Origin: Alphaproteobacteria bacterium
GTDB lineage: Bacteria; Pseudomonadota; Alphaproteobacteria; UBA7887
Direction: 5' to 3'
DNA length: 64,000 nucleotides
Assembly (NCBI GenBank): GCA_965216755.1
Contig: CBDCGL010000011.1
Coordinates: forward strand, 1,298,609-1,362,608
The notes under the pieces: generated by a model
Seen by the model: the letters and a program-made list of their open reading frames with translations, nothing else
What the model was told of the DNA's origin: nothing
Databases searched by the model: none
Shown here: positions 46,085 through 61,261 of the stretch, one piece after another
Position numbering within the stretch: position 1 is the first letter of the stretch
Layout: every line of letters starts with the position of its first letter
Translations under genes and position numbers: made by a program

Positions 46085-47101
46085 TTACGTGTAAAGCCGC
46101 TCGCCTCTTATACCCTCATATAGATGGGCGACCTGATCCGCGTATCCGTTGAAGAGCAATGTTGGTATTTTCTCTTTCGACCCCAACCGCTTCTCAGTCC
46201 GTTGACTCCAACGCGGGTGGCGGACTTTAGGATTGACGTTCGCCCAAAAGCCATACTCGTTCGGTTGGACGTCCTCCCAAAACGTCTGCGGCCTGTCTTC
46301 CACCAGCGTGAATCGCGTGATGGACTTGATGTGCTTAAAGCCATATTTCCAAGGCACCGCGAGACGCAACGGCGCCCCATTCTGTTCCGGCAAAGGCTTG
46401 CCATAGGCGCCGACAACGACGAAGGCGAGTTCATTGGTCGCCTCGTCAATAGTCAAAGCCTCCGTATACGGCCACGGATACCACGCCTGGCGTTGGCCAG
46501 GCGCGATATCGCTGTCGAAGAAGCTTTCCATGCGAAGAAACTTGGCGTCGCTCAAAGGGCGCGCCATGGCGATCAGCTCGCTAAGCGGAAATCCGCTCCA
46601 GGGCACCACCATCGACCAGGCTTCGACACAACGATGCCGATATACCCGCTCCTCGAGCGGCATTCTGTGAACCAAATCATCGAATGAAATCGAGATCGGT
46701 TTTTCGACCAATCCGTCGATGGTGACATCCCAGGGGCTGGTCTGAAGGTTGACGGCCGTTTTCCATATGTTCTTGTGCGAGCCGAACTCGAGAAAATTGT
46801 TGTACCGAGTCACCAACTTTTTCTCCGTGATCGAGTCGTCAGCCACGTACGCGGCATTGCGCATGACCGGGAGAAGCTCGGCAACCGAGCGTGCCCCCGC
46901 GGTCGATATTTCCGGTGCATCCGGCGCTGCCGATTGTTCGCCTTCGTCGCCCGTATCACACGCGGCGATAAGTCCCGTTACCGACACCATCGTGGAGGCT
47001 ATCGCCAACCCGCGCAGAAACTTACGGCGTTCCCGGAATGTATGCTCGGGAGTCACGGCGCTCTCGTCGATCGCCCATCCGGGCCGCACACGCACCAGCA
47101 T
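46085..47101 (-). CDS. msrP: protein-methionine-sulfoxide reductase catalytic subunit MsrP (YedY; sulfite-oxidase-fold Mo enzyme)
   Basis: 338 aa. Tat signal RRKFLRGLAIASTMVSV. The Mo-domain region around the VYRHRCVEAWSMVVPW motif is characteristic of MsrP/YedY. Confidence 0.85.
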   Translation of the reverse strand: MLVRVRPGWAIDESAVTPEHTFRERRKFLRGLAIASTMVSVTGLIAACDTGDEGEQSAAPDAPEISTAGARSVAELLPVMRNAAYVADDSITEKKLVTRYNNFLEFGSHKNIWKTAVNLQTSPWDVTIDGLVEKPISISFDDLVHRMPLEERVYRHRCVEAWSMVVPWSGFPLSELIAMARPLSDAKFLRMESFFDSDIAPGQRQAWYPWPYTEALTIDEATNELAFVVVGAYGKPLPEQNGAPLRLAVPWKYGFKHIKSITRFTLVEDRPQTFWEDVQPNEYGFWANVNPKVRHPRWSQRTEKRLGSKEKIPTLLFNGYADQVAHLYEGIRGERLYT

Positions 47102-47235
47102 ATCCTTACATCACCTGCCCGGCCCGAAGTACCAGATCCGAAGTCAACATATGCCGTGTACATAGCGTATATCGCGACAGCCACGCCATAAACAAATTTG
47201 TGCGCCACGCAGTCATACCAATCCCGAGCGGCATT

Positions 47236-47658
47236 CTATTGTGAGGCAAGTGGATAAAGTATCAACGCGCCATTTGGCGCGATCCAATACCACCCGTGAG
47301 CGCCCGCATGGATCTCAGTTGGTTCACCCGCCTCGGCCATACCAAAGAAACCCGGCACGTTCGGGACCATCGGCATAGCCGGCATACCCACCATGCCGAC
47401 CATCCCCGCTTGCGGCATGGTCGGCCCCGACGGATACAGGGCCAACTGACCCGTGGTCAGGATTCGATACCATCCCGTTGACCCCAGGACACCCCCAGCA
47501 GTGTAGCCGCGCGTCGCAGGATCCAAGCTCGATTGGCTTGCCGCAACCGTCCCCCCTGCGACCATCAAGAAAAGACACGCCAAAACTAGGCCACCGTAAG
47601 CCTTTAGCTTGTAGCTACCGCACCTGTCCGGTGCCACCCTCGTGCCCAGCGTGTTCAC
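47236..47658 (-). CDS. small secreted protein with duplicated G[WF][YF]..P.G.L.LYP motif
   Basis: 140 aa. Signal-like LVLACLFLMVAGGTVAA. Two copies of the motif (GWYRILTTGQLALYP, GWYWIAPNGALILYP) flank a short Met/Pro-rich segment (GMVGMVGMPAMPMVP). Confidence 0.6.
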   Translation of the reverse strand: MNTLGTRVAPDRCGSYKLKAYGGLVLACLFLMVAGGTVAASQSSLDPATRGYTAGGVLGSTGWYRILTTGQLALYPSGPTMPQAGMVGMVGMPAMPMVPNVPGFFGMAEAGEPTEIHAGAHGWYWIAPNGALILYPLASQ

Positions 47659-49016
47659 GTCGAACCCGACGACTCCTCATGCAAACCATATTTTCGGATC
47701 AGACGGTACGTGTTTCGCTCACTTATTCCAAGTGTGGCCGCAACTTTTACCCTATGACCCGAGTATTTTTCCAAGAGATGCTTCAGATAATCTTGCTCTA
47801 TTTCTTTCAAGCTCGGTTCGTGATCAAATGACAAGACCAACTCCTCGGCCTTCGGCGACTGCTCGGTCGACAGAACGACATGCTCTTCATGAATGGTCGG
47901 ATGTGCACCGGACAGAATTATCGCGCGCTCCACTACATTCTTCAGCTCTCGCACGTTACCCGGCCAATCATATGCCATCATTCTTTTCATGGCGCGCCGC
48001 GATACGCGCTTGTCAATCCGTCTTGAAAAATCGTGATTGCTAATGAAATGATTAACCAAGTCTTCAATGTCCTCTCGACGTTCACGCAATGGCGGTACCG
48101 TTATGACAAAGGCACTGAGTCGATAAAACAAATCTGAACGAAACCGGCCGTCCCGACTGAACTTCTCTAGATTGGCATTTGTCGCGGCAACAATTCGAAC
48201 ATGCGCTGTCAGGTCCTTTGTGCCGCCGACGCGCCGGAATTGACCGGATTCAAGAACGCGCAGCAACTTTGCCTGGATGGACGAAGTGATTTCGCCGATC
48301 TCATCGAGAAAGAGCGTGCCGCCTTCGGCCCCCTCGATTAACCCTTTCTTCTGTCGATCAGCACCGGTAAAGGACCCACGCTCATGGCCGAAAAGTTCCG
48401 ATTCGAACAACGTTTCCTGTAAGGTACAGCAGTCCAACGCGACAAAATTGCGATTTAGTCGCGCGCTGCGTTCGTGGATTTCGTGGGCGACAAGCTCCTT
48501 GCCGACACCGCTTTCGCCTTGGATCAAAACGGTCATATCCGACGGCGCCACAGCATCGATCAGACGATTGACCTGCTCCACCGCCGTGCTGTTGCCGACC
48601 AAAAAAGTTCGCCGACTGGTGCGCAACCGATCTTCAACAAACTGCAAATTGCGGCGCAGCGCGGCATTCTCCAAGACTCGGTCGACAACGACTTCCAATT
48701 CTTCCAAGTTGACGGGCTTGGAGAGATAGTCGGCAACGCCCAACTGCATGGCCTTCACGGCTTTCTGCACAGACGCATATGCCGTTAATATGATGACCGG
48801 TTGCTGCGCGACGAGATCCGAAAGGAATTCGTACCCGTCAGCATCAGGTAGTCGTGGATCAAGAACGATCAGGTGTGGCTCGTACGCTGTCAGATAGTTT
48901 TCCGCAGCCGCCCAACAATCGACGCCCTCGGTTGCATAGCCGACTTGGTTGAGTTGCTTGACAAGCAAACTATTCAGAACTTGATCGTCCTCAATGATCA
49001 ATATGTTCGGCTTCAA
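47655..49016 (-). CDS. sigma-54-dependent response regulator (NtrC/Fis family)
   Basis: GGGAG RBS then TTG start at LKPNILIIEDD. Receiver domain, AAA+ sigma-54 activator domain (GESGVGKE, GAFTGA-like ESELFGHERGSFTGA), C-terminal HTH. Confidence 0.85.
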   Translation of the reverse strand: MKPNILIIEDDQVLNSLLVKQLNQVGYATEGVDCWAAAENYLTAYEPHLIVLDPRLPDADGYEFLSDLVAQQPVIILTAYASVQKAVKAMQLGVADYLSKPVNLEELEVVVDRVLENAALRRNLQFVEDRLRTSRRTFLVGNSTAVEQVNRLIDAVAPSDMTVLIQGESGVGKELVAHEIHERSARLNRNFVALDCCTLQETLFESELFGHERGSFTGADRQKKGLIEGAEGGTLFLDEIGEITSSIQAKLLRVLESGQFRRVGGTKDLTAHVRIVAATNANLEKFSRDGRFRSDLFYRLSAFVITVPPLRERREDIEDLVNHFISNHDFSRRIDKRVSRRAMKRMMAYDWPGNVRELKNVVERAIILSGAHPTIHEEHVVLSTEQSPKAEELVLSFDHEPSLKEIEQDYLKHLLEKYSGHRVKVAATLGISERNTYRLIRKYGLHEESSGST

Positions 49017-50979
49017 CGCAGGCTCCCTGATCGACAACTGCCTGATATCCGGCGCGCGGCAACCGAATCTCAAATAGGGTTCCGACGCCGACACCACTCC
49101 TTACCTCGATCGTGCCCCCGTAGCGCTCGATGATAGCTTTGGCAATCGAAAGGCCCAATCCGGTCCCTTTTTCACCATCTGCCCGGCGGCTGAAAAATGG
49201 ATCATAAATGTGAGGAAGGTCTCCAGGCTGGATCCCACAGCCCGTATCCTCGAATATGATTTCTACGTTGTCTTGCGTCTCCGAAGTCGCGATTCTGAGT
49301 TCGTCGCCCGGCGACATGGCGTGAAACGCGTTTTGCACAAAATTCAGGACAATCATTCGAATCTCGCTGTCGCTGCACAGTACGCGCGGTTGCCGCGGAT
49401 CCAGATCAAGCTCTATGCGATGTTCATGCGACTTGGATTCAAACGACAATAGAGACACGGTGTCGCTGATCGCACGGTTGACATCGACCAGTTCCGGGGA
49501 CCTGCTTGGTGGTGCGCTCAACTTCATCAAGCGCTCTGTCACTTCGATGCATTTATCGATCTCAGTATCGACAGTACTCAGATACTGACCTATGTCATCA
49601 AGGGACTTATCTTCCCGCCCCGTTGCTCGGAGCGCCGCTTGCAGCGCCAACCTGATAGAGCTCAGCGGATTGTGGATTTCGTGCGCGACACCCGTGGCGA
49701 GTTGGTCCAATTCCTTCAACTTCTGCTCTTGGGAAATTTGCATCTCGTTTGATAGGTCGCGAATGGACTCAACGACCAGCGTCTTCGGCCGTCCCTCTTC
49801 TTCCAACATAAGTGGTGCGGCGTAAACCTGCACCCGCGACAGGGACCCGTCGTTTAGAACATGCTGGTGGATCGTCTTTACGGGTTTCCCTGTGCGCGCG
49901 ATTTCAGTCAACGGACAAATGACCAATCCAGCCGGACAGGGGCTTTCGCGGCGATGACTTGACTCATAGCAGGGTATGCCGACCACGTCGGTCATATGAA
50001 CGCCAAGATGGCGACAATAGGCCGAATTCGCCGTGACGATCGCGTGGTCCGAATCGATCACACGCAATGGATCTGGATTTGCTTCCAACAATGCTTGCAG
50101 AAATTGCCCTCGCCTTTGCGATTCCCGGATACTTGTCGCCAGATTGTGTGCCATTTCGTTGAAACGGTTTTCAAGCTCGGCCATTTCGTCACGCCCACGT
50201 ACGGCGACTCGGCTATCAAGCTGTCCCGAAGACAGTTTGCGCGTCGCCGTCGCCAACTGGCGAACTGGGCGAACCACGTTGTTGCGGACAAACCACCATC
50301 CAGCACCAACCGTCAACAACACCACGAGCGCGCCCGAACCGGTTAACATAAAGGCCAGCATACGGGCATCCCGACGCACCGGCGCGGCGTCATAGTCGAC
50401 AAAGATGACACCATTGACCGGATGCGCTTCGACCGAACCATGACACCCGATACAAGCAGGGCGGTTCCGGATCGGGTTCACGCTGCGCAACACCTCCCGT
50501 CCCTGCGCATCAACAGTAAAAACACTGCGCGGCCGGGACGCCGTCTCCGATGCGTGACACCCGGCGCAGGCAGGATCGGTGCCGCGGTCAAACCGTATTC
50601 CGACACGATCTCCTGACGATGCAAACCTCACTTCACCCGCCGGGTTCACAATCATGACGCCGCTAATCCCCTGCTGCTGACCGAGGCGTACGACAATATC
50701 CCGCAATCCACTCAGGTCTCTTTTCAGCATCGCATTCTCTAGCGATGCTTGGAGCAAGCGATTGATCTGTGTTGAGGCCTCCGTGCGTTCGCGCTCCAGT
50801 TGCGCGCGATACATGCCGACAAACAGCACTAAGAAAATAAGCGACGCGGCAACCAGACCAATCGTCATAATGACGGTAAATCTACGATCTAGTCGCGATA
50901 TCAACGGCGTGACCCTCAGCCAGAAACCCCTTTTGACAATGTCACAAATCGGACATTTCAATTGGGCCCAAAAAAGCAC
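48991..50979 (-). CDS. sensor histidine kinase with periplasmic di-haem (2x CXXCH) sensor domain
   Basis: TM helix, then periplasmic domain with CAGCH and CIGCH. HAMP, PAS-like, HisKA (HEIHNPLSSI) and HATPase_c domains follow. GTG start at 50979 or ATG at 50868. Confidence 0.8.
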   Translation of the reverse strand: MLFWAQLKCPICDIVKRGFWLRVTPLISRLDRRFTVIMTIGLVAASLIFLVLFVGMYRAQLERERTEASTQINRLLQASLENAMLKRDLSGLRDIVVRLGQQQGISGVMIVNPAGEVRFASSGDRVGIRFDRGTDPACAGCHASETASRPRSVFTVDAQGREVLRSVNPIRNRPACIGCHGSVEAHPVNGVIFVDYDAAPVRRDARMLAFMLTGSGALVVLLTVGAGWWFVRNNVVRPVRQLATATRKLSSGQLDSRVAVRGRDEMAELENRFNEMAHNLATSIRESQRRGQFLQALLEANPDPLRVIDSDHAIVTANSAYCRHLGVHMTDVVGIPCYESSHRRESPCPAGLVICPLTEIARTGKPVKTIHQHVLNDGSLSRVQVYAAPLMLEEEGRPKTLVVESIRDLSNEMQISQEQKLKELDQLATGVAHEIHNPLSSIRLALQAALRATGREDKSLDDIGQYLSTVDTEIDKCIEVTERLMKLSAPPSRSPELVDVNRAISDTVSLLSFESKSHEHRIELDLDPRQPRVLCSDSEIRMIVLNFVQNAFHAMSPGDELRIATSETQDNVEIIFEDTGCGIQPGDLPHIYDPFFSRRADGEKGTGLGLSIAKAIIERYGGTIEVRSGVGVGTLFEIRLPRAGYQAVVDQGACVEAEHIDH

Positions 50980-51039
50980 ATAGTTATAAGGGTTTTTGGG
51001 ACGTAACGCCAGCGCGGCGCCCTCCCAACGCGAGTCGTC

Positions 51040-52113
51040 TTATGCCAAGACTTGAAAGAGATTGAGCTTTCGTCCGGTTTCACGACATACCCAACACGTC
51101 GCGGACTCAAGAGCCTGGTCGCCCGGCATGTGAAACGGCGTACCACAGCGCGCACAGACCTGGCGCCGCAACGGCAATTGAAGCTGCGTGGGCGCGATGT
51201 CGGTCCCGATCGATATGGCGTGCTGTCTGCAAACATCCACACACAGCATACACCCACTGCATCGGTTCGCCTTCAGCCCATAGTGCGTATTGTCACCGTC
51301 ACGCCGCAGAGTGATCGCGCCATGTGCGCACAAGCGCACGCAGGCGTCACAGCCCGAGCACCGTTCGCTGTCGATCTCCGGGACAAAGGGAAGTAGAGCC
51401 GTATCGCCATCCGCGAACAGAGGTGGCCTGTGCTTTGGCCGTGGCGCCTCGTCCGCGACCGTCTGTCGCTCGACGCGATCGATAAGTGTACTAACCATAC
51501 CCTTCAGGAGCGAACGACGGCCGAGCCCGTTGTCGCGCCGGCGCACTTCGGCGCCGTCACGCGCCGCCCGCCACTTGCCGACGGGCAGCAAGCGAATGGC
51601 CAAAGCCGGCTGGTCCCGCGCCGACAAATACTGGTTCACGGTATCAACGACAGACTCAAGGCGCATACACGCCCCCCGCCGGCATGTGTCACATGGTGCC
51701 TCGGCGACCCACAACGTATAGATTCCGCGGTCGTGAAGTTGGAACAAAGCACGCATCGAAATTGCATGGACACATGGCACGACGCCTGCGCCGTCGTCGC
51801 TTGTCGCAGTATCGCAGGCGACGAACGCGACGCCTTGCCCGCGCACATCACGCATTGTTGTGGCAAATTTGGCCTCGATCGCGGATTCTGGGCATACTGC
51901 CGCGCACAGGCCGCAGCCGTCGCAACGGCCGACGTCGATCATCAAGCCATCATCGCACAACGACAAAGCGCCTTCGGGGCAGGCCTTGACACAGGCGGTG
52001 CATGTCGCATCGACCGTACGCCCGTGGACGCATAAGTTGCCATCAATCTCGGGACATTGATCGTGCGCCGCATCCCTCGGCGAATCCGCCATTTCCAATC
52101 GACCAATCACCAA
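51040..52113 (-). CDS. multi-cluster 4Fe-4S ferredoxin-type protein
   Basis: 357 aa. Several CxxCxxCxxxCP motifs (CTACVKACPE, CDGCGLCAAVCPE, CSGCDACVRLC, CSGCMLCVDVC). Confidence 0.7.
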   Translation of the reverse strand: MVIGRLEMADSPRDAAHDQCPEIDGNLCVHGRTVDATCTACVKACPEGALSLCDDGLMIDVGRCDGCGLCAAVCPESAIEAKFATTMRDVRGQGVAFVACDTATSDDGAGVVPCVHAISMRALFQLHDRGIYTLWVAEAPCDTCRRGACMRLESVVDTVNQYLSARDQPALAIRLLPVGKWRAARDGAEVRRRDNGLGRRSLLKGMVSTLIDRVERQTVADEAPRPKHRPPLFADGDTALLPFVPEIDSERCSGCDACVRLCAHGAITLRRDGDNTHYGLKANRCSGCMLCVDVCRQHAISIGTDIAPTQLQLPLRRQVCARCGTPFHMPGDQALESATCWVCRETGRKLNLFQVLA

Positions 52114-52880
52114 CTCGGCGCGGTGCCAGGTAGATAAGTTGGGCCCAATTCGCCGCAGTCTTTTGAAAATCTCTTGTTGGCGCGTAGCTGCTCGTAGTTG
52201 GGCTTGGGCTGATCAAGTGCAAGTGCGAACAATTCACGTGCGCGATGAAGATAGGCTGCAGTCGTTCCCGCCAAACCCGCGTAGAAAGGCATTTCGCACC
52301 GCGCCATGACGCGCTCCGCGAAAGCGTCGATCCAGAGCAGGAGGTGCTGATCCAAAAACGCTGCCGCGTCTCTCACCGCCTGCAAATCGCGTCCATCCGT
52401 CAGCAACCGGCCAACAAACTGCAGTTGCAAAACCAGGTGATCATCCGCGCGACTTGCCCAGTCTTGAACACAAACACCGTGGCGCCGGTACCAAGCCCGC
52501 ACTTCAAACATCGGTTGCTGACGTTCCAATCCATCTTCGTCCAGCCACACCGATTCGTAAGGGGACGCGCGGTAGCCATGCGTCAAATAGATTTCGCCAT
52601 ATTCGACCGCGAGCCGATCCAGTACGTCATCACCAGGTGTATCTGGCAACGCCGCCACCGCCTGATCGAATATATCGAGTGCGGCGCGTCCCGCCGCCGT
52701 CTCCAGTCGAAGACCCAGGCTTTGGGCAAGCCCTTCTTCACGCAGCGCTGCTAGGGTCTTCGCCTCTGGCTCCTTGTCATGAAGCATGGCCAAGAGCTTG
52801 AGATCCGCGGCCACACTCGTCCGCAGTTGGTCGAGCAAATCACGACCCCCGGGCATCTCGGACGCCACGGCCGATGCCAT
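52107..52880 (-). CDS. TorD/DmsD-family redox-enzyme maturation chaperone
   Basis: Family-like motif pattern (PDDHL.LQLQF..L, ESVWLDEDGL). ATG at 52880 sits 1 nt after the DmsB-like stop. Confidence 0.6.
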   Translation of the reverse strand: MASAVASEMPGGRDLLDQLRTSVAADLKLLAMLHDKEPEAKTLAALREEGLAQSLGLRLETAAGRAALDIFDQAVAALPDTPGDDVLDRLAVEYGEIYLTHGYRASPYESVWLDEDGLERQQPMFEVRAWYRRHGVCVQDWASRADDHLVLQLQFVGRLLTDGRDLQAVRDAAAFLDQHLLLWIDAFAERVMARCEMPFYAGLAGTTAAYLHRARELFALALDQPKPNYEQLRANKRFSKDCGELGPTYLPGTAPSW

Positions 52881-52881
52881 T

Positions 52882-53553
52882 TCAGCCGGCATCGACGCGG
52901 CCTTTGCTGTGCGCCACAAAAGCAATCGACGGTCTGGTTAACGCTGGATCCGCCAAATTCTTGACTTGCTGCGTCACTTTGTCCGCCGGACCCAACGCCT
53001 TAGTCTCATAGCCACCCGCTACGATCTGGTCAATCGGCCCAACATCCAGCACGCGCATCATGCAAGCCATGACGCAATAGGGTTTTCGACCCGCATCAAT
53101 TTCGTCGACGCACATATTGCATTTCTTGACCAGGTTATCTTCCGGATCAAATTGCGGTGCACCATAGGGGCATGCGGCCTCGCATCGCCGACACCCAATG
53201 CACAGCGTCGAGTCGATATCAACGATGCCATCTTTCTTGCGCTTGAATATGGCCCCGGTCGGACATGTCGGCAAACATGCCGGTTCTGCGCAATGGTTGC
53301 ATGACATATTAACCTTGTACGCATAAACGTCCGGGAACTGGCCGCCTTCGATGTATTGCACTCGGCGAAATCGAGGCCCTGGGCCAAGACCATTCTTGTC
53401 TTTACAAGCAATTTCGCACGCGCGGCACCCGATACAATCAACGTTGTGATGCACGAATCCGAGTTGCGTATCGGGCACGACCGGCTTGTAAACTTCGCGC
53501 TTGCGCCTCTTGACTGCTTCTTTGACCCGTGCCTTATCGATCTGGTTCGTCAT
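52882..53553 (-). CDS. DMSO-reductase-family iron-sulfur subunit (DmsB-like, 4x [4Fe-4S])
   Basis: 223 aa with four ferredoxin Cys clusters (CIGCRACEIAC, CNHCAEPACLPTCP, CIGCRRCEAACP, CNMCVDEID...CVMAC). Confidence 0.85.
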   Translation of the reverse strand: MTNQIDKARVKEAVKRRKREVYKPVVPDTQLGFVHHNVDCIGCRACEIACKDKNGLGPGPRFRRVQYIEGGQFPDVYAYKVNMSCNHCAEPACLPTCPTGAIFKRKKDGIVDIDSTLCIGCRRCEAACPYGAPQFDPEDNLVKKCNMCVDEIDAGRKPYCVMACMMRVLDVGPIDQIVAGGYETKALGPADKVTQQVKNLADPALTRPSIAFVAHSKGRVDAG

Positions 53554-53576
53554 GGAACAACTCCCCCTAAAACGTT

Positions 53577-56117
53577 TTAGTTGTCACGCCGGAAAACGTG
53601 GCCACGTGCCGTGGCAAGCTTGTCCCATCCGGGCCTGTGGGTGAGCTCTGTCTTGGACATGTTGACCAGAATCGTATTGTACGCGAACGCGCCCGCCGGA
53701 CTCGGTTCGTCGGCTGTCAAGAAGTCCGGATTGCCCGAGCGGTCGACCCCTGTTTCATCGAGATCCATCCAGGCCCCTTCGTGCAGAACGACGACGCCGG
53801 GCATGCACCTTTCGGTCACATAGGCCGGCACAACCGTGGCACCACGATCGTTCCAAACATAGACGGCGTCACCAGTCTTGATACCCAACCCCTCGGCGTC
53901 TTTCGTGTTGATCGTCACCTCTTGCTCGTAGGTCTCGCGCAACCAAGGAATGTTGTTGAAGATCGAATGGGTGCGCCACCGGGGATGCGGCGTGATCATG
54001 TGGAACGGATACTTCTCCGCTTTCGGGTGATTGAGCGACTCCCACGGCTCAATCCATTTCGGGATGTAAGGGATCGGCGCGCCAAACTGCGTCTTCTTCC
54101 AATCCGTGACCGACGCCAACTGTGTCGAGAAAATCTCAACCTTTCCTGACGGAGTCGAGAACGGTTGACCTTTCTCGACTTGATCCCGGAACGCAACGTG
54201 TGGTTCGTCGAGCTCAAATTTGTAGACCCCACGTTTCTTGAACTCATCCCACGATATCTCGACGTGGTGGTGATGCCGTACTTTGGTCTCCCACCACTCA
54301 CTGAGATACGCTTCGTCGACAGCGTCGTCATTGTAGAAATAGTCGCGCGTGGCCTTCGGATTGAAGACGTTTCCAAATCCCAATCGGAAGCCGAGCTCGG
54401 TGAAGATCTGCAAGTCGCTTTTGCTTTCCCCCAACGGCTCAATGACTTTCGGCCGATGAATGTAGTAATGCCCCTTGTACCAAGGTAGGGCCACGTCGTG
54501 CCGTTCGAAATGCGTGGCTACCGGTAGTAACACGTCGGCCCAAATCCCGGACGGGGTTATCGTGGAGTCTTGGCAAACCACGAGATCAAGCTTCTTTATG
54601 GCTTCGATCTCTTTGTTGATATTCGTCAACTGATTGAACCAATCGGATGCCTGCCACCAAATTGCACGGATATTCGGAATCACGCCGTCCATTGGCCCAG
54701 GTTTTGGCCACAATCCAACATCCTCGCGCCGCACATACGGGTAGTTCAACACACAATGCGCCCACCGATCGGACTTAATCGCAGCCGCGTGCACGTTAGC
54801 ATATTGATCGTATGGGCCGGCGACGCTTTCCATATGCCAGCCCTTGCCGACACCTTCACTCGAACCGCCCAAAACACCGATGTTCCCGGTTTGCGCTTGC
54901 AGCGCCGCGGCCATACGGCTGTATTGTTCCCCATAGGCGGCGCGCCCGGGCGCCCAAGACGCCTTGAGCGCGGCTGGCTTGGTTGTGCCATACATTTCGG
55001 CCAATTTCTTGATGTCCGCGGCGGACACACCGCAAATGGGTTCGGCCCACTCCGGTGTTTTTGGTTGACCATCATAACGGCCATAAATGTAGTCGCGGAA
55101 GTTCTCCATATTGGCCGCCCAGGGCGGCATGGTGCCCTGATCCATTCCCAAGCAGAATCTATCGATGAAATCTTGATCCTGCCAATTATTCTCAAAAATG
55201 TGGAAGGCCATGGCGGCAAGCATCGCCGCGTCTGTGTTCGGCTTGATCGGAATCCACCATGCGTCGTAGGCGGCTGCCGAGTCCGTGTACTGAGGATCGA
55301 CGACGACAAATTTGCAGCCGCGTTGCTTCGCCAGCCGCATATAGTAGAACGTATTGCCGCCATGAAATGTGTAAGCCGGATTCCAGCCCCACATAATGAT
55401 CAATTTGGAATGAGCGAACGCGTCATCCTCGTTGCCGTCTTCGATTGTTCCGAACGTCTGTAGTGAACTAAATGTTGTACCTTGATAGGATGGCACGGAC
55501 CATGACACGGTGCGGCAGCCAAATATGCCGAGGAACCGACCCAGAGACCCTTCGATCTGATCCGACTTGTGCAGGGCACCCCAAGACGCACCCGCATAGG
55601 ACTGATCGAGAATGGCCGTCGGGCCGTATGTATTCTTCAGGTGCAACATGCGCTCGGCGAGATAGTCAAGGGTATAGTCCCAAGACGCGCGTTTGAACTT
55701 GCCCTCACCACGTGCGCCGACCCGGATCATTGGGTAAAGCAACCGTTCCGGCGAATAAATACGCGATCGATACGATCGGCCACGCAAGCAAGCCCGCACT
55801 TGCGGCACCGCTTCCGTGTCAGTGTTAAACGCATCGCCTTGATAGGTTCCGTCGTCCGTCGACAAGCGAACGATCACATTGCCCTTTTTGTGCGCAACCA
55901 GCATATGGCGCGAACCACAGTTGTGTGCGCAGCTGGTGACAACCGTGGTGAGCTCATCATCCGTGTAATAGGGCTCATAAGCGAACGCGTCAGCCTGTTG
56001 GCTCTGTGCGGTGCTCACCAAGCCGGCCGTCGCGCCGGCGGCGGCCGATTGCAGAAAGCCCCGCCGCGAAACATTGAACGCTGATCTCAATTCATCCAGG
56101 CGATTTTGTTTAGTCAT
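53577..56117 (-). CDS. molybdopterin oxidoreductase catalytic subunit (DMSO reductase family, DmsA-like), Tat signal
   Basis: 846 aa. Tat signal SRRGFLQSAAAGATAGLVSTAQS. N-terminal Cys cluster for [4Fe-4S] (CAHNCGSRH...), bis-MGD domains, C-terminal molybdopterin dinucleotide-binding domain. Confidence 0.85.
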   Translation of the reverse strand: MTKQNRLDELRSAFNVSRRGFLQSAAAGATAGLVSTAQSQQADAFAYEPYYTDDELTTVVTSCAHNCGSRHMLVAHKKGNVIVRLSTDDGTYQGDAFNTDTEAVPQVRACLRGRSYRSRIYSPERLLYPMIRVGARGEGKFKRASWDYTLDYLAERMLHLKNTYGPTAILDQSYAGASWGALHKSDQIEGSLGRFLGIFGCRTVSWSVPSYQGTTFSSLQTFGTIEDGNEDDAFAHSKLIIMWGWNPAYTFHGGNTFYYMRLAKQRGCKFVVVDPQYTDSAAAYDAWWIPIKPNTDAAMLAAMAFHIFENNWQDQDFIDRFCLGMDQGTMPPWAANMENFRDYIYGRYDGQPKTPEWAEPICGVSAADIKKLAEMYGTTKPAALKASWAPGRAAYGEQYSRMAAALQAQTGNIGVLGGSSEGVGKGWHMESVAGPYDQYANVHAAAIKSDRWAHCVLNYPYVRREDVGLWPKPGPMDGVIPNIRAIWWQASDWFNQLTNINKEIEAIKKLDLVVCQDSTITPSGIWADVLLPVATHFERHDVALPWYKGHYYIHRPKVIEPLGESKSDLQIFTELGFRLGFGNVFNPKATRDYFYNDDAVDEAYLSEWWETKVRHHHHVEISWDEFKKRGVYKFELDEPHVAFRDQVEKGQPFSTPSGKVEIFSTQLASVTDWKKTQFGAPIPYIPKWIEPWESLNHPKAEKYPFHMITPHPRWRTHSIFNNIPWLRETYEQEVTINTKDAEGLGIKTGDAVYVWNDRGATVVPAYVTERCMPGVVVLHEGAWMDLDETGVDRSGNPDFLTADEPSPAGAFAYNTILVNMSKTELTHRPGWDKLATARGHVFRRDN

Positions 56118-56187
56118 TACTGAGTTCCTGTCTGGTGTCGCCTACTGCACAACTTGTCGTTGCTATTTCCTGCCATGACGTTTGACG

Positions 56188-56988
56188 TCACTGCGCGTTG
56201 ATGCGAAAGCGTGACGCCGACTCGGTCGGGCGATCGACCGCCCATTCCGGCGTTTCTTCCGGCATGTCCGGCCAAGGATGTCGCGGGTATGGATACGATG
56301 TCGCGTACCACGCACGGCCACCATGACAGCCGTAGCAAACATCTGAGCTCTCTCTTGCCAGTTCTTCTATGGCATCTGCCTTGAGGTAGTTGACGTTGTG
56401 CCGAACCGTACGGAACAGTTCCTCATGACACAGCTGGCATCCATTGGGTGTCGCCTCATCCTCCAGATCAACACGAACTTCTGGCCAAGGCCCCTCGACG
56501 CCGAGCATCAGTTCGTTTGGAAAACGCCCATGACACAACAAGCACGTTTCTTGAGGGACCACCGACTTACGTAAACTAAATCCAGCGTCAGCGGCGGTCG
56601 GTGGTATGGGTGCTTCTTCACGGGGATCGTGACCCAGGTGGCAGGTGTTGCATTGCAAATCCATAACCTGCGTCGCGTATGGGGTTATCAAATGCCTCCG
56701 ATGAAAAGTTTCTTGATCTCCCTGATATGTATCCAATGTCTGATACCACGCCGTTGATTCCACAGCTTCAACGCCTGCCGGCGACTCGCTTAGAACGCGG
56801 CGGTCGATAATTTCCTGGTGACAGGACAAACATTGATCGTTCGTTGCTGACTCGATTGCCGGCCGGAAATGAATTGGATCCCAGATGGCGCTCTCATAGT
56901 CGATCTCCGCGGCACTAGCACCGGACGCCGCCCACAACCCGACATACATGGCAGTCAACGGCCGCACGATGGCCATCACCTTATTCAT
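56188..56988 (-). CDS. pentaheme c-type cytochrome
   Basis: 266 aa. Signal peptide and five CXXCH motifs (CLSCH, CNTCH, CLLCH, CQLCH, CYGCH). Confidence 0.75.
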   Translation of the reverse strand: MNKVMAIVRPLTAMYVGLWAASGASAAEIDYESAIWDPIHFRPAIESATNDQCLSCHQEIIDRRVLSESPAGVEAVESTAWYQTLDTYQGDQETFHRRHLITPYATQVMDLQCNTCHLGHDPREEAPIPPTAADAGFSLRKSVVPQETCLLCHGRFPNELMLGVEGPWPEVRVDLEDEATPNGCQLCHEELFRTVRHNVNYLKADAIEELARESSDVCYGCHGGRAWYATSYPYPRHPWPDMPEETPEWAVDRPTESASRFRINAQ

Positions 56989-57359
56989 TGTTGCCCCACC
57001 ACTTGTTGCGTCGCCCCACTCATGGAGGCCGTTTCTTCATTGGATATCTCGCTGTGGCTCTGGTGCCATCCACGAATGTCGTACGGTCCGGTCATGCCTG
57101 GACGTGTAAAAGGCGTGAACCAGGCCCCCTGATCTTCGAGAAAACGGAGACTATAGGGATAAGGACTGTCGACGCCTGTGAGGGCGTGGTCATACCAAGC
57201 CCCATTCTTTTCCAACTCATGGACCACCGGCGCGTCTGCCGGCCGCTGATCTGGCTTGGTTCCAGCGACTGAAAGAGTTGTTTGGCTGGCTTGCGCGCCT
57301 ACATGTCCGAGACTGGCCAGAACGACACCCGCCAGCGGCACAAGTTTCCACAGTGTCAT
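56985..57359 (-). CDS. hypothetical secreted protein
   Basis: Start placed at MTLWKLVPLAGVVLASLGHVGAQA (signal peptide). Stop overlaps the cytochrome start (ATGA). Contains two GAW[YF] segments. Confidence 0.45.
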   Translation of the reverse strand: MTLWKLVPLAGVVLASLGHVGAQASQTTLSVAGTKPDQRPADAPVVHELEKNGAWYDHALTGVDSPYPYSLRFLEDQGAWFTPFTRPGMTGPYDIRGWHQSHSEISNEETASMSGATQQVVGQQ

Positions 57360-57474
57360 GCTATTTCTCACTCTTCTTTTTCTTGCCCGCACGCGTCGTC
57401 CCTCCCGGCTGGTAAACGCTGTCAAAGAAAATCCTGAACTCTTGGTCATCCTGCCAGTCGCTGGCCTCATCCGG

Positions 57475-57933
57475 CTAGTTTGTCACGTCGGAGTTATCCT
57501 GATCCACATTGCTCGGTCCCGCCATCGGTTGTGTGGCAGTCGGTGCCTGGCCATGCATCCACGGCATGGAGCGCGGTCCTTGTTGGCCAAATAACAAGCC
57601 CGCCGGTGCGTAAAGCAGCAGCCCACCATCTGGCGCGACCCGAAAGAACCCGCGGGAATTGACCAGATTTGTGCTGCCGAACATGCCCAGGATCGTGTAC
57701 ATCACCTCAGGCGGCACGACTTGGCTCACAGGATAAAGGACGATCCCCCCATTTGGCATAAACTGAAAGAAGCCATGGGCGTCCACCAACGAACCAACGG
57801 CGATCGGCTGATCTGGATTAGCCGGCACAAGCGACTGACCATCTTGCGCGAGAACTTGCATCGGTTTGGCCGCCATGAATGCTGTCATGAGCAAGACGAC
57901 GCCAAAACTTGTCACACGCCTAATTACAATCAT
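57475..57933 (-). CDS. small secreted protein with duplicated G[WF][YF]..P.G.L.LYP motif (paralogue of 47236..47658)
   Basis: 152 aa. Signal peptide VVLLMTAFMAAKPMQVLA. Motif copies GFFQFMPNGGIVLYP and GFFRVAPDGGLLLYAP. Met/Pro-rich tail (MPWMHGQAPTATQPMAGP). Confidence 0.6.
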   Translation of the reverse strand: MIVIRRVTSFGVVLLMTAFMAAKPMQVLAQDGQSLVPANPDQPIAVGSLVDAHGFFQFMPNGGIVLYPVSQVVPPEVMYTILGMFGSTNLVNSRGFFRVAPDGGLLLYAPAGLLFGQQGPRSMPWMHGQAPTATQPMAGPSNVDQDNSDVTN

Positions 57934-58082
57934 TGTCTAACTCACAATGTTCCGATCGTGCCATCATGCGTGAAGGTCGCAATCGGGAAGAAAGAGGCTT
58001 CGCGGTGAGTGTCCGGAAAACAACTGACTCGACTTCTGTCGGCGTTCACCGGACACATACACCATGCTAGCGCTTTAGCGTT

Positions 58083-59480
58083 TTAGCGCGGCGGTTCCCA
58101 GTTGCGGGCTGCCATACCTGGCATACCTTGCATGCCCCACATGCCGGGCATACCCTGCATGCCCCACATTCCGGGCATACCCTGCATGCCCCACATTCCG
58201 GGCATACCCTGCATGCCCCACATTCCGGGCATGCCCTGCATACCCCACATTCCGGGGTAGCTGGCGTACATCCCCCACATGCCGGGGTTCATCCCCCACA
58301 TACCAGGCATACCTTGCATGCCCCACATACCGGGCATGCCGTACATGCCGCCCATGCCCCACATGCCAGGGTTCATGCCCCACATACCGGGCATACCTTG
58401 CATGCCCCACATACCGGGCATGCCGTACATACCGCGCATGCCCCACATGCCAGGCATTCCGTACATGCCGCCCATACCGGGCATGCCGTACATGCCGCCC
58501 ATGCCCCACATGCCAGGCATTCCGTACATGCCGCCCATACCGGGCATGCCGTACATGCCGCCCATGCCCCACATGCCGGGGTTCATCCCCCACATGCCGC
58601 GCATGCCATACATGCCGGGCATTCCGTACATGCCACCCATGCCGCGCATGCCCCACATGCCGGGCATTCCGTACATGCCGCCCATGCCGGGATAGTTCGC
58701 GTACATGCCATACATACCGCCCATACCGGGCATTCCGTACATACCGCCCATGCCCCACATGCCGGGGTTCATCCCCCACATGCCGCGCATGCCATACATG
58801 CCGGGCATTCCGTACATGCCACCCATGCCGCGCATGCCCCACATGCCGGGCATTCCGTACATGCCGCCCATGCCGGGATAGTTCGCGTACATGCCATACA
58901 TACCGCCCATACCGGGCATTCCGTACATACCGCCCATGCCGGGCATGCCGTACATGCCGCCCATACCGGGCATGCCGTACATGCCGCCCATACCGGGCAT
59001 TCCGTACATGCCGCCCATGCCCCACATGCCGGGGTTCATCCCCCACATGCCGCGCATGCCATACATGCCGGGCGTTCCGTACATGCCGCCCATGCCGGGA
59101 TAGTTCGCGTACATGCCGCCCATGCCCCACATGCCGGGGTTCATCCCCCACATGCCGCCCATGCCGGGATAGTTCGCGTACATGCCGCCCATGCCCCACA
59201 TGCCGGGATTCATCCCCCACATGCCGCGCATGCCATACATGCCGCCCATGCCCCACATGCCGGGGTTCATCCCCCACATGCCGCGCATGCCATACATGCC
59301 GGGCATTCCGTACATGCCACCCATGCCGGGATAGTTCGCGTACATGCCGGGCATGCCTTGCATGCTCCACATGCCGGGATACATCCCCTGCATACCTTGG
59401 CCGGCGGATGGCTGTGACATCATTAGCATCGCGCCAATGACCATCGCCGTACCGGCCACTCTCCTTAGCTGCTTCAACAT
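58083..59480 (-). CDS. secreted methionine-rich G-M-X tripeptide-repeat protein 1
   Basis: GAGGAAGG RBS 8 nt upstream of ATG 59480. Signal peptide [27 protein letters not shown]. About 440 aa of ([22 protein letters not shown]...) repeats with interspersed YANYPG. Same strand as the whole cluster. Confidence 0.7.
58110..59410. repeat. coding tandem repeat: 9-nt/27-nt units with 186-nt higher-order near-perfect copies
   Basis: For example, the stretch beginning cccatgccccacatgccgggg at 58561 recurs at 58747. No stop codons in any of six frames, so all frames give long artefactual ORFs. Confidence 0.85.
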
Positions 59481-59805
59481 TTAACGAACCTTCCTCATAA
59501 CAATTGTTCGGTCGGCTTAGACTTCACTCAATCCTCGAATCCCAGTTGCAAGTGCCGCCGTTCAAGGTCCGACACCGACAAATCTCGATCTTGGACCGGC
59601 GTTGCGGACAGAACATCAGCTATGCATCGTTGTTCCGTGAACCCTATCCATTTGTTCGCACTGCAACCTTTCGCCGTTTTATTGACGGCATTGAATAAAA
59701 AGATCTGTGGCTTACGCCCCGTTCTTGAGGGAACGGCCCAGTTGCTCTGTCAGAATTCCCAAGCCATGGTGGGCGCTCTGTTGCGCCCACCATGCTGCAG
59801 TCGAC

Positions 59806-60843
59806 TTAGCCGTCTTTATCGTCGTCGGACTCACCCGACATGCCTTCCATGCCGGACATACCTTCCATGCCGGTCATGCCGGACATACCGCTCATGCCGG
59901 ACATACCTTCCATGCCGGACATACCGCCCATGCCGGACATACCTTCCATGCCGGACATGCCTTCCATGCCGGTCATGCCTTCCATGCCGGTCATTCCGGG
60001 CATCCCCGTCATACCCATTCCAGGCATGCCGTACATTCCGCCCATGCCGGGCTGTAACGCAGCCAAGTTTGCCGGATAGAGCGTGATGACGTTACCAGGG
60101 CCAACGGTGAAGTAGCCGGCGAAGACCGCGCCACCACTCATGCCTTGCATGCCGCCCATACCGGGCATGCCTTGCATGCCGCCCATACCGGGCATGCCTT
60201 GCATTCCCCACATACCGGGCATGCCTTGCATACCCCACATACCGGGCATGCCTTGCATACCCCACATGCCGGGCATGCCTTGCATTCCCCACATGCCGGG
60301 CATGCCTTGCATTCCCCACATACCGGGCATGCCTTGCATTCCCCACATGCCGGGCGTGCCTTGCATTCCCCACATGCCGGGCATGCCTTGCATTCCCCAC
60401 ATGCCGGGATAGTTGGCATACCGTTGGCCTTGCATGCCCCACATGCCGGGGTTCATCCCCCACATGCCGGGCATACCTTGCATACCCCACATACCGGGAT
60501 AGTTCGAATACTGTTGACCTTGCATGCCCCACATGCCGGGGTTCATCCCCCACATGCCGGGCATACCTTGCATACCCCACATGCCGGGCATACCTTGCAT
60601 ACCCCACATACCGGGCATACCTTGCATACCCCACATACCGGGCATGCCTTGCATACCCCACATGCCGGGATAGTTCGAATACTGCTGACCTTGCATGCCC
60701 CACATACCGGGCATACCTTGCATACCCCATTGATTGGGCATAGTTTGCTGGCTATGTGCCGTGCTTGTCGCGCTCAGTGACGCCATCGCAACAACGGCAA
60801 CGAGGCCAACAACCCTCCCAATCTTTTTTAGCGTACTAATCAT
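59806..60843 (-). CDS. secreted methionine-rich G-M-X tripeptide-repeat protein 2 with central LYP motif and acidic GM[EST] C-terminal repeats
   Basis: Signal peptide MISTLKKIGRVVGLVAVVAMASLSATSTAHS. About 200 aa of almost uniform GMWGMQGMP repeats. Then GGAVFAGYFTVGPGNVITLYPANLAALQPG. Then [25 protein letters not shown]... ending GESDDDKDG. Confidence 0.7.
   Translation of the reverse strand: MISTLKKIGRVVGLVAVVAMASLSATSTAHSQQTMPNQWGMQGMPGMWGMQGQQYSNYPGMWGMQGMPGMWGMQGMPGMWGMQGMPGMWGMQGMPGMWGMNPGMWGMQGQQYSNYPGMWGMQGMPGMWGMNPGMWGMQGQRYANYPGMWGMQGMPGMWGMQGTPGMWGMQGMPGMWGMQGMPGMWGMQGMPGMWGMQGMPGMWGMQGMPGMWGMQGMPGMGGMQGMPGMGGMQGMSGGAVFAGYFTVGPGNVITLYPANLAALQPGMGGMYGMPGMGMTGMPGMTGMEGMTGMEGMSGMEGMSGMGGMSGMEGMSGMSGMSGMTGMEGMSGMEGMSGESDDDKDG
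59830..60740. repeat. coding tandem repeat (27-nt unit catgccgggcatgccttgcattccccac and variants)
   Basis: Many consecutive perfect 27-mers at about 60140..60420. Open in all six frames. Confidence 0.85.
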
Positions 60844-61109
60844 TCGTACCTCTATGTCGCCGTCTCCCGTGGAGACAGCGGTCCTTTAATGTGCTGACCG
60901 AGAAAAGACGCCGCAGCACCCGGGATGAACATTTCCTAGGTACTGTGGCTCGAATTCCCACCTAACTGCTTGCCTTCCCGTTGACGCCGCTGATTGCGGC
61001 GCCGGCTTTTTAATAAGCAGATTTCGTGCCAGCCTTAGCGTGCAAGCGTAAGTATTTGAAATTTTGTATGAATTCGACTTCGGCCACGTTCAAGGGCCTG
61101 TCTCTAACC

Positions 61110-61188
61110 TGCCAAATTGGCAGACAAATCGGAGACCGAAATTAAGAATCTCTTGTTTTCAGCAGCTTGGAACCTGACATAATGTCAG
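61110..61188. promoter_or_regulatory. two palindromes in the 417-bp leader region upstream of Met-rich gene 2: TGCCAAATTGGCA (61110..61122) and CTGACATAATGTCAG (61174..61188)
   Basis: Perfect dyad symmetry read from the sequence. Function unknown: candidate operator or activator sites. Confidence 0.25.
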
Positions 61189-61261
61189 CGTCGCGCCGAA
61201 TGCAATGCGTTATCTGTGGCGAGGGCTCGGCGCGGCGTCAGTCCAGTGCGCGCCGACGGCG

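Follow-up and report, generated by a model that had tools for sequence, protein, structure and literature searches.

Secreted methionine-rich proteins that act together with a molybdenum enzyme are known from Azospira suillum, in which MrpX and YedY1Z1 (MsrPQ) scavenge hypochlorite under the control of SigF and NrsF (Melnyk et al. 2015, PMC4436054). Enzymes of the dimethyl sulfoxide (DMSO) reductase family also act on oxidised methionine: methionine sulfoxide is a substrate of canonical DmsABC, which E. coli and H. influenzae induce in response to hypochlorite (PMC12096835, PMC11024254), and MtsZ, of the TorYZ type, is a methionine sulfoxide reductase (PMC5122715). Here we analyse a cluster of 13 genes in a 64,000-nucleotide stretch of an alphaproteobacterial genome (contig CBDCGL010000011.1, positions 1,298,609 to 1,362,608; the whole stretch is referred to below as the window), which encodes secreted proteins built of glycine-methionine repeats together with a DmsA-related molybdoenzyme, a pentahaem cytochrome c and a two-component system.

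The interpretation that we favour, with a probability of roughly 0.5, is that this cluster is a periplasmic methionine redox buffer, in which an oxidant-scavenging reservoir is recharged by a sulfoxide reductase fed from the respiratory chain. We base this model on the near-obligatory presence of a methionine-rich (Met-rich) partner beside the enzyme, on accessory genes of the repair type, on the kinship of the enzyme to DmsA, and on the precedent of MrpX and YedY. No published description of the cluster was found in the open-access literature or in bioRxiv, where genome papers contain only generic mentions of 'dmsAB'.

Gene content and conservation of the cluster

All 13 genes lie on the minus strand, running from 60843 down to 46085. 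Open reading frame (ORF) listing and profile searches against Pfam and NCBIfam recovered the gene order and domain content that an earlier note on this DNA had proposed, with the following members in the direction of transcription:

59806..60843, minus strand, Met-rich protein 2: 345 residues with 83 Met and 97 Gly, (G-M-X)n
58083..59480, minus strand, Met-rich protein 1: 465 residues with 136 Met and 156 Gly, (G-M-X)n
57475..57933, minus strand, LYP_A, small secreted protein with two G(F/W)(F/Y)x..P.G..x(L)LY(P/A) motifs
56985..57359, minus strand, HypSec, conserved small secreted protein, start taken at M38
56188..56988, minus strand, pentahaem cytochrome c with five CXXCH motifs and a signal-peptide-like N-terminus
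53577..56117, minus strand, catalytic subunit with molybdenum bis(molybdopterin guanine dinucleotide) (Mo-bisMGD), exported by twin-arginine translocation (Tat); DmsA-related, distinct clade (the Mo subunit)
52882..53553, minus strand, DmsB-like four-cluster iron-sulfur (FeS) subunit with 16 Cys
52107..52880, minus strand, TorD/DmsD-family maturation chaperone (PF02613, 81 bits)
51040..52113, minus strand, cytoplasmic polyferredoxin, NapF-like, 27 Cys
48991..50979, minus strand, sensor histidine kinase: transmembrane (TM) segment, periplasmic CXXCH domain, TM segment, HAMP, PAS, HisKA, HATPase
47655..49097, minus strand, NtrC-family sigma-54 activator: REC, AAA+ with GSFTGA, HTH_8
47236..47658, minus strand, LYP_B, small secreted protein with two WY...LYP motifs flanking a short Met-rich linker
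46085..47101, minus strand, MsrP, periplasmic Mo-dependent protein-methionine-sulfoxide reductase (NF003767)

When one genome per species was scanned, close relatives of the Mo subunit turned up in at least 594 genomes, spanning Alpha-, Beta- and Gammaproteobacteria. We fetched 80 of these loci (cited below by L numbers) and surveyed them by tblastn and ORF listing; 56 other species-level genomes had enough upstream DNA to be informative. The cytochrome, Mo, FeS and chaperone genes stand together in all loci, and the polyferredoxin gene is present in 56 related loci. Co-occurrence of a GM-repeat gene with this module had been set beforehand as a test. Of the 56 informative genomes, 55 have a gene for a secreted GM-repeat protein that shares the strand of the cytochrome gene and precedes it by no more than 4.5 kb; 19 further loci that end near the cluster retain a Met-rich fragment at the contig edge. 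This near-universal partnership is strong evidence that the Met-rich protein and the enzyme module form a functional unit, one that requires the Met-rich protein. The arrangement is well illustrated by Ca. Competibacter denitrificans, in which HypSec and two GMSGMGGM-type proteins are followed by the cytochrome, Mo subunit, FeS subunit, chaperone, a 231-residue protein, polyferredoxin, kinase and activator. Other hosts include denitrifiers, wastewater glycogen accumulators, Hyphomicrobium relatives, Rhodobacterales, Thiodiazotropha, Sedimenticola and the sulfur-oxidising symbionts of lucinid clams, and among cultured organisms Zhengella mangrovi, Ruixingdingia sedimenti, Thermopetrobacter sp. 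TC1, Jhaorihella thermophila, Marimonas arenosa and Paracoccus sp. P2.

Both Met-rich proteins of the window have a signal-peptide-like N-terminus and lack Cys, and methionine makes up 24% of protein 2 and 29% of protein 1. Runs of at least three GMX triplets contain 65% of the residues of protein 2 and 78% of those of protein 1; the longest runs reach 23-24 triplets, with 23 in protein 1, X is mainly W, P, Q, Y, G, R or S, and the runs are broken by P, ANYP and GQQYSNYP inserts. The underlying DNA repeats in units of 9, 27, 54 and 81 nt, with periods of 9, 27 and 69 nt in Met-rich gene 1, and further frames on both strands stay open through these repeats as well, which might suggest that the ORFs are by-products of simple DNA repeats and no real genes. 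We consider the probability of this negligible. The Met frame alone combines an ATG with a ribosome-binding site (AGAGG for Met-rich gene 2 and GAGGAAGG for Met-rich gene 1) and a signal peptide; G-M periodicity is kept in 55 of 56 genomes, on the strand of the operon and despite different DNA units; and non-repeat parts are shared between genomes, as Met-rich protein 2 has a single LYP-type island and ends in an acidic tail, and its counterpart in L004 shares this island and the GM(S/T/E) tail.

The Pfam Collagen model scores 99 bits on protein 2 and 82 bits on the other Met-rich protein (cut-off 27.2), and it matches because every third residue is Gly, with autocorrelation peaks at lags of 3 and 6. 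This match may reflect periodicity only, and Trp or Tyr at the Y position disfavours a collagen triple helix; nevertheless, collagen-like or polyproline II (PPII) rods are a conceivable form for such sequences, and rods of this kind might leave all methionines exposed to solvent. Distant genomes retain the glycine at every third position although their repeat units are different. Across the loci the Met-rich partners range from about 60 residues to about 680 residues (L004), and their repeats vary widely around a constant G-M periodicity; L026, L034 and L066 encode short MrpX-like peptides of about 60 residues that combine GM repeats with Lys, Glu and Gln, and most members of the family consist of GMSGMGGM units free of Trp and His. 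Two public assemblies have runs of N inside their Met-rich genes (L073, around 8300-8700, and L033, around 8050-8150). Such repeats are probably often collapsed or broken during assembly, so the protein lengths are lower bounds.

LYP_A has no match in Pfam or NCBIfam, and a word-indexed search of 5.8 billion proteins returned no homologue but itself. A full HMMER scan of 1.84 billion representatives found just eight relatives of LYP_B, in which a GM-repeat linker that varies in length stands between two WY...LYP motifs (P0243-P0249). This arrangement marks the LYP proteins as a short subtype of the GM-repeat class, and on their motifs and distribution we class them as a rare, lineage-specific subtype outside the core. 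HypSec is much more widely kept, being present in 53 of the 56 informative loci and leading the operon in most other genomes. Its start is most likely M38 (57359), as the corresponding 124-residue form is present in a public protein collection, and its mature part would have about 90 residues. None of its 378 relatives is named or has a Pfam domain; their alignment contains 21 invariant columns, including PYPxSLxFL and PGMxxPYDxRxWH. An AlphaFold2 model from a 38-sequence alignment was of low confidence, with a predicted local distance difference test (pLDDT) of 68.6 and a predicted TM-score (pTM) of 0.29.

MsrP presents a different picture. The window protein is a clear family member (NF003767, 420 bits; cut-off 207), and the earlier note had linked the GMX genes to msrP as well as to the Mo module; the latter link is borne out by the 55 genomes mentioned above, but MsrP stands by the cluster in only 5 of 81 loci, the window included, and is therefore accessory rather than core. 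The five genes (window 46085-47101; L004 3535-4641; L008 5218-6249; L030 6130-7293; L040 6252-7241) all encode a Tat motif and a lipobox Cys, and their products are probably lipoproteins. No MsrQ/YedZ-like hydrophobic ORF was found among the genes adjacent to MsrP in any of the five loci; the electron donor of these MsrPs may therefore differ, and is perhaps the cytochrome of the cluster.

Other accessory genes were identified by all-against-all clustering of the ORFs in the 80 loci, with Pfam checks. A signal-peptide MsrA or MsrA-MsrB occurs in six loci, a periplasmic thioredoxin-NHL protein in 11 gammaproteobacterial loci, and two recurrent families without a Pfam match in 13-15 loci; an ATP-binding cassette (ABC) transporter ATPase and a phosphoribulokinase-like protein occur in about five loci each and were taken as unrelated. 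An Msr-type gene lies nearby in about 12% of cases, compared with a rough estimate of about 2-3% expected within 10 kb of a random locus, and those near the cluster are of the rarer secreted forms. The neighbours with an assignable function mostly suggest extracytoplasmic sulfoxide and thiol repair. Gammaproteobacterial operons (L016, L045, L052, L055, L058, L061, L064, L065, L068 and others) have an added monohaem cytochrome c and thioredoxin-NHL protein (for example L052 14036-14479 and L054 6350-7990), with Thiodiazotropha and Sedimenticola among the hosts, and gammaproteobacterial versions also encode a 260-280-residue protein without an assigned function upstream of HypSec. Two Pfam-less proteins lie between the chaperone/polyferredoxin and kinase genes, one of about 180 residues in L015 (17414-17965) and 14 other alphaproteobacterial loci, and the 231-residue protein of Competibacter (L001 14100-14795).

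The same survey bears on a metal-based explanation, in which the Met-rich proteins are periplasmic buffers of Cu(I), Ag(I) or other soft metals, like CusF, PcoE/SilE and the Met-rich regions of CopA, and the Mo module is unrelated or protective. Thioether-rich repeats are classic ligands of Cu(I) and Ag(I), and the GMWGM units place Trp between Met residues, as the CusF site does; many hosts are, judging by organism name, denitrifiers with a high copper demand; and an HlyD/CusB-like gene lies near the cluster (62543-63685). Most family members, however, use GMSGMGGM without Trp or His, the HlyD-like gene is not conserved, and the 80 loci have no recurrent gene for copper or silver resistance or trafficking (copper, chlorite-dismutase and other oxyanion genes were absent at a threshold of at least five loci). 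Metal buffering would also leave the invariant partner, a Tat-exported Mo enzyme with its cytochrome, without a role, and the Msr- and thioredoxin-type neighbours fit oxidation instead. We therefore consider this explanation improbable, and where the earlier note had named copper or silver buffering as the main alternative, that place is now taken by a reductase of small oxidants, which is discussed below.

The molybdoenzyme and its electron partners

The Mo subunit was described in the earlier note as DmsA-like, which is correct in so far as it is closest to DmsA and YnfE, but it is not an orthologue of either. The best-scoring NCBIfam model is TIGR02166 (dmsA_ynfE), at 607.1 bits below its cut-off of 777.7, and the DmsA-specific NF011566 gives 437 against 1600. 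Identity to E. coli DmsA, YnfE and YnfF is 34-37%, whereas those three share 67-71% with one another and members of the new group share 75-83% across proteobacterial classes. With more than 3000 relatives, the Mo subunit forms, in these comparisons, a distinct and tight clade apart from DmsA/YnfE. It has an SRRGFLQ twin-arginine motif and matches PF00384 and PF01568; the Mo ligand Ser210 aligns to Ser147 in the DMSO reductase of Rhodobacter, and 120 of 120 sequences have it unchanged. The motif of the FS0 cluster reads C63-x3-C67-x3-H71...C110, and its third position, His71 in all 120 homologues, is Cys in E. coli DmsA, YnfE and YnfF; this suggests a His-ligated or otherwise altered cluster, possibly with a shifted potential. 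The active-site loop is SWSVPSYQG instead of the YGDYSS of DmsA, and there is a conserved C-terminal extension that DmsA lacks.

The FeS subunit is 44% identical to E. coli DmsB (TIGR02951, 190.5 bits; cut-off 214.1) and, having no signal peptide of its own, is presumably exported together with the Tat subunit. The polyferredoxin also lacks a signal peptide and resembles NapF (TIGR00402, E = 2.6e-14, below the cut-off); by analogy with NapF, its role would be in maturation. An assignment of the enzyme as a perchlorate or chlorate reductase was rejected, as type II models score low and there is no cld gene in the window or the related loci.

The cytochrome gene is immediately upstream of the Mo-subunit gene in every locus, and 78 of 82 cytochrome homologues have five CXXCH motifs. 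The protein had no match among PDB sequences up to E = 1, and its resemblance to NapC/NirT (PF03264, 19.5 bits; cut-off 24.1) and to NrfH is weak and sub-threshold; on these comparisons it is a new family. The earlier note had a soluble multihaem cytochrome replace the membrane anchor. The pentahaem cytochrome and the absence of an anchor are both upheld, since ORF listing and Pfam revealed no DmsC/NrfD-type gene in the cluster, and no membrane protein recurs across the 80 related loci. That the cytochrome is soluble is plausible only; the N-terminus of the window protein resembles a cleavable signal peptide (ASA-AE), and a homologue has a TM helix. This homologue, in L040 (Geminicoccaceae, 8730-9962), combines its N-terminal helix with an Ala/Glu-rich linker of about 100 residues, which suggests a membrane-tethered variant.

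In 12 gammaproteobacterial loci the operon includes a class-I monohaem cytochrome c, and two alternative functions draw on this observation. One of these is that the enzyme runs oxidatively in the manner of DMS (dimethyl sulfide) dehydrogenase, with a thioether (DMS, methionine or the Met-rich protein) as electron donor and the cytochrome c pool, reached via the pentahaem cytochrome, as acceptor. Taking potentials from general knowledge, this direction suits a high-potential cytochrome c partner thermodynamically, and hosts include DMS-using or sulfur-oxidising Hyphomicrobium, Rhodobacterales, Thiodiazotropha and Sedimenticola. The known DMS dehydrogenase, however, belongs to the type II (NarG-like) branch and not to the DmsA branch, and the model TIGR03479 gives only 198 bits on the Mo subunit; moreover, the adjacent Msr reductases point the opposite way, and deliberately oxidising a secreted protein would bring no evident benefit. 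We regard this alternative as very improbable.

The more serious alternative is that the Mo enzyme reduces a small oxidised compound (DMSO, an N-oxide, chlorate, bromate, iodate or selenate), with the Met-rich proteins mopping up a by-product or oxidant and being re-reduced by MsrP or MsrAB encoded nearby or elsewhere. The very high conservation of the Mo subunit suggests a defined substrate, and the in-operon class-I cytochrome c would suit a high-potential acceptor. There is also a precedent for a reductase with a Met-rich sink in perchlorate reductase, with its multihaem PcrC, the sigma-54 regulators PcrSR and MrpX (PMC4436054), and papers on lucinid symbionts report 'dmsAB' genes and strong expression of a 'DMSO reductase' whose substrate is unverified (PMC8090883, PMC11237559). 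On the other hand, the 80 loci have no recurrent gene for chlorite dismutase, a peroxidase or another enzyme acting on a by-product, ordinary respiration of DMSO or N-oxides yields no reactive product that would explain a near-obligatory Met-rich gene upstream of the enzyme genes within one operon, and only about 11 of 81 loci have an Msr gene next to the cluster. We therefore judge this alternative unlikely, although it is the principal rival to the redox buffer.

Several points weigh against the redox-buffer interpretation itself. Activity, expression and oxidation are inferred for every member, and the Mo subunit is only about 35% identical to enzymes of known methionine sulfoxide activity and falls below the family cut-off. 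Its conservation of 75-83% across classes would equally fit a specific small-molecule substrate. MsrP cannot be the core reductase, since it is missing from most loci. Characterised DmsA-type enzymes act on one sulfoxide diastereomer only, so complete recycling would need another enzyme. The class-I cytochrome c within some operons hints at a high-potential electron partner; the reduction potential of sulfoxides is about +160 mV, and a high-potential cytochrome c pool as donor would make their reduction unfavourable, so that such a partner matches a high-potential acceptor or the oxidative direction better than it does sulfoxide reduction. Lastly, L056 (Ca. Nitricoxidireducens bremensis, 8700-12556) is the only informative locus without a Met-rich gene, as HypSec is followed there directly by the cytochrome; it offers a natural test case for the enzyme working without its Met-rich partner.

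Regulatory elements and flanking genes

The kinase and activator genes are co-located with the module in about 65 of the 80 loci. The window kinase, whose start codon assignment is uncertain, contains two CXXCH motifs (residues 138 and 176), which fall in the periplasm, as they are flanked by the two hydrophobic segments of the protein; one is conserved in 59 of 63 homologues, and the other, the second motif of the window protein, is not conserved. Sensor-domain matches were sub-threshold (PF11845, DUF3365/Tll0287, 18.4 against 24.1 bits; sCache_3_2, 19.8 against 28.4 bits), and a search of the sensor-domain profile against the PDB ranked the haem-c sensor domains of Geobacter (3B47 and 3B42) first, at non-significant E values of 0.06-0.11. 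The kinase core is closest to ZraS. The system had been termed haem-sensing, and the conserved CXXCH does support a haem-containing sensor; haem as the signal sensed does not follow from it. The activator matches Sigma54_activat at 219.7 bits and has the GSFTGA loop in its sequence, and its translation probably begins some 28-33 codons into the ORF.

The regulatory elements located in the window are:

61016..61031, minus strand, sigma-54 type -24/-12 promoter TGGCACGAAATCTGCT, about 175 nt before the first ATG
61109..61123, no strand assigned, palindrome CTGCCAA-T-TTGGCAG, candidate enhancer site 1, about 91 nt upstream of the -24 element
61174..61188, no strand assigned, palindrome CTGACAT-T-ATGTCAG, candidate enhancer site 2, of the same CTGNCA-N3-TGNCAG type
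59765..59796, minus strand, RNA hairpin after the stop codon of Met-rich gene 2: -31 kcal/mol, z = -4.5, 0 of 200 shuffles as stable
58004..58063, minus strand, RNA hairpin after the stop codon of Met-rich gene 1: -32 kcal/mol, z = -3.0, 0 of 200 shuffles as stable

A -24/-12 promoter had been predicted upstream of 60843, 59480 and 56117, and it was found before the first of these only. TGGCACGAAATCTGCT is the sole match with one mismatch at the intergenic site upstream of the cluster; matches of this type over the whole window are not more frequent than expected by chance, so the support for the promoter rests on its position and on recurrence across species, with the canonical YTGGCAYR-N4-TTGCW a short distance ahead of the leading operon gene in at least 20 related loci. 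Matches at 59480 were poor and there was none at 56117; candidate second sites upstream of 59480 and 57933 were rejected, as GGCACTTGCA has the wrong spacing and TGGCACGATCGGAAC lacks a -12 element, and no second sigma-54 promoter was found within the cluster. Palindromes of the form CTGNCA-N3-TGNCAG recur 90-185 nt upstream of -24/-12 elements in L008, L011 (twice), L023, L025, L031, L069 and L073, and L011 contains two exact copies of CTGCCAA-T-TTGGCAG; these palindromes, which occur in several bacterial classes, are likely binding sites of the activator and candidate recognition sites for its family. Neither hairpin has a T-run, and they may be intra-operon attenuators or mRNA stabilisers that set the ratio of protein to enzyme. 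Scans for sigma-70 promoters and intrinsic terminators gave fewer matches than in shuffled sequence, none of them informative, and an Rfam scan of 45000-62000 (E <= 0.1) gave no match, and thus no molybdenum cofactor (Moco) riboswitch.

The earlier note had described short gaps or overlaps throughout the cluster. This is accurate for the junctions that it quoted, namely the ATGA overlap at 56985-56988, the 7-nt overlap of the TorD-like chaperone and polyferredoxin genes (52107-52113), the overlaps of kinase with activator and of activator with LYP_B (4 nt), and a 1-nt gap at 52881 provided that the chaperone starts at the ATG at 52880. It does not apply to intergenic regions of 325 nt (59481-59805), 149 nt (57934-58082) and 134 nt (47102-47235).

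The flanking genes are unrelated to the cluster. Upstream are an Ldh_2 dehydrogenase and the HlyD/CusB-like membrane-fusion gene (62543-63685, plus strand), whose association with the cluster is not kept in other genomes. Directly downstream of MsrP, a Tat-signal protein like gluconate-2-dehydrogenase subunit 3 and a GMC flavoprotein (42873-45590, minus strand) probably form a separate periplasmic dehydrogenase, and hydantoinase and ABC transporter genes follow farther on. The wider window (hydantoinase, ABC transporter, SPFH, deacetylase and isochorismatase genes) is likewise unrelated; it includes a 941-residue protein (30588-33413, minus strand) in which only an N-terminal SPFH/Band 7 domain is recognised and about 750 residues have no match.

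A proposed mechanism and its relation to known systems

Under the redox-buffer model, the haem-c sensor kinase would detect an extracytoplasmic oxidant or a signal of the nitric oxide (NO) type and phosphorylate the sigma-54 activator, which would bind the upstream palindromes and fire the single -24/-12 promoter. The first genes, for the (Gly-Met-X)n, LYP and small conserved secreted proteins, would be made in excess, and the hairpins after the Met-rich genes may raise their expression above that of the enzyme genes. In the periplasm, hundreds of exposed thioethers would be sacrificially oxidised to methionine sulfoxide, with hypochlorite, chloramines and peroxynitrite as candidate oxidants. 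The Tat-exported DmsA-like/DmsB-like enzyme, matured by the TorD-like chaperone and the NapF-like polyferredoxin, would reduce the sulfoxides back with electrons arriving through the pentahaem cytochrome, and in this genome the predicted lipoprotein MsrP would serve as a second reductase. The earlier note had outlined a periplasmic, electron-transport-linked methionine reservoir under a haem-based kinase, and this outline is strengthened by the co-occurrence of the core in 55 of 56 genomes, the kinase/activator pair in about 65 of 80 loci, the promoter, and the Msr and thioredoxin neighbours; it has to be amended in that MsrP is not core and the Mo subunit is no DmsA orthologue.

A broader reading, which we put forward only tentatively and think somewhat doubtful as a whole, joins these elements into a widespread and undescribed extracytoplasmic antioxidant machine. 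Gly-Met-X polymers, with up to about 190 thioethers per chain, would act as a catalytic oxidant sink recharged from the respiratory chain by a new DmsAB-type clade with a His-ligated FS0 and a new pentahaem cytochrome family, under a haem-c Cache kinase sensing NO or oxidants; this would amount to a 'hypohalite/peroxynitrite reductase' pathway in denitrifiers, wastewater bacteria and the sulfur-oxidising symbionts of animals. If this is true, at least 594 species-level genomes in three proteobacterial classes carry an unrecognised, respiration-powered defence against extracytoplasmic oxidants, and the MrpX-MsrP principle extends to a second, unrelated family of molybdoenzymes. Should the lucinid 'DMSO reductase' belong to the same Mo-subunit family, which is unconfirmed, the reading would explain its very high expression (PMC8090883), and automated calls of 'dmsAB / DMSO respiration' in sulfur-cycle inferences would need correction. 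The proposed function can be tested in the cultured hosts, and the pentahaem cytochrome family, the His-containing FS0 motif and the extreme (G-M-X)n composition are new parts for study.

The cluster and MrpX-MsrPQ are alike in several ways: in each case a signal-peptide protein with 20-30% Met is encoded with a periplasmic molybdoenzyme of the sulfoxide-reducing type, a cycle of sacrificial oxidation and re-reduction is proposed for both, and the short members in L026, L034 and L066 are alike to MrpX in size and composition. The partner enzymes differ, being a bis-MGD DmsA/DmsB-type enzyme with a pentahaem cytochrome here and MsrP of the sulfite-oxidase fold with haem-b MsrQ there. The haem-c kinase and sigma-54 activator likewise replace the extracytoplasmic function (ECF) sigma/anti-sigma pair of MrpX, the (G-M-X)n proteins reach several hundred residues, HypSec is an additional small secreted protein, and MsrP is occasional in cluster loci and without MsrQ. 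A term search of an August 2026 review of sulfoxide reductases returned MrpX as the only periplasmic Met-rich scavenger cited.

With DmsABC and YnfEFGH, reductases of S- and N-oxides and selenate, the cluster enzyme shares a Tat catalytic subunit that has an FS0 domain and binds Mo through Ser, a TorD/DmsD-type chaperone and what is probably a four-cluster FeS subunit, and their NCBIfam models are the closest. It differs in its 34-37% identity and sub-cut-off scores, the FS0 His, the SWSVPSYQG loop and the C-terminal extension, and the quinol-oxidising anchor DmsC/YnfH is absent from the cluster, which has the pentahaem cytochrome, Met-rich proteins and sigma-54 two-component system besides. 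A 2025 DmsA phylogeny covers only groups of the E. coli, Shewanella and Ynf types (PMC12096835). In TorCA, DorCA and TorYZ a gene for a five-haem cytochrome also adjoins that of a periplasmic enzyme of the DMSO reductase family, but the Tor and Dor enzymes lack FS0 and an FeS subunit, and cytochromes of the TorC type are membrane-anchored quinol dehydrogenases of the NapC/NirT family, which the cluster cytochrome matches only weakly.

Haem-c Cache domains fused to signalling modules are reported to behave as sensors of the NO type in vitro (2026 preprint, PMC12889525). The kinase resembles sCache_heme sensors such as Geobacter GSU0582 and GSU0935 in having one conserved CXXCH in an extracytoplasmic domain between two TM segments, and differs in falling below the Pfam threshold and in its second, non-conserved CXXCH. 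The perchlorate reductase island, with PcrABCD, PcrSR, RpoN and MrpX/YedYZ as cited in PMC4436054, offers a parallel to the whole assembly, namely a periplasmic Mo enzyme, a multihaem cytochrome, a chaperone, a kinase with a sigma-54 activator, and a Met-rich scavenger. PcrA, however, belongs to the type II (NarG-like) enzymes, the island depends on chlorite dismutase, which the cluster lacks, and the Met-rich gene of the island sits in a separate regulon. The pairing of a Met-rich scavenger with a Mo sulfoxide reductase is thus a principle already known from MrpX-MsrPQ; what is new in this cluster is the enzyme clade, the cytochrome family, HypSec, the (GMX)n architecture, and control by sigma-54 and a haem-containing sensor.

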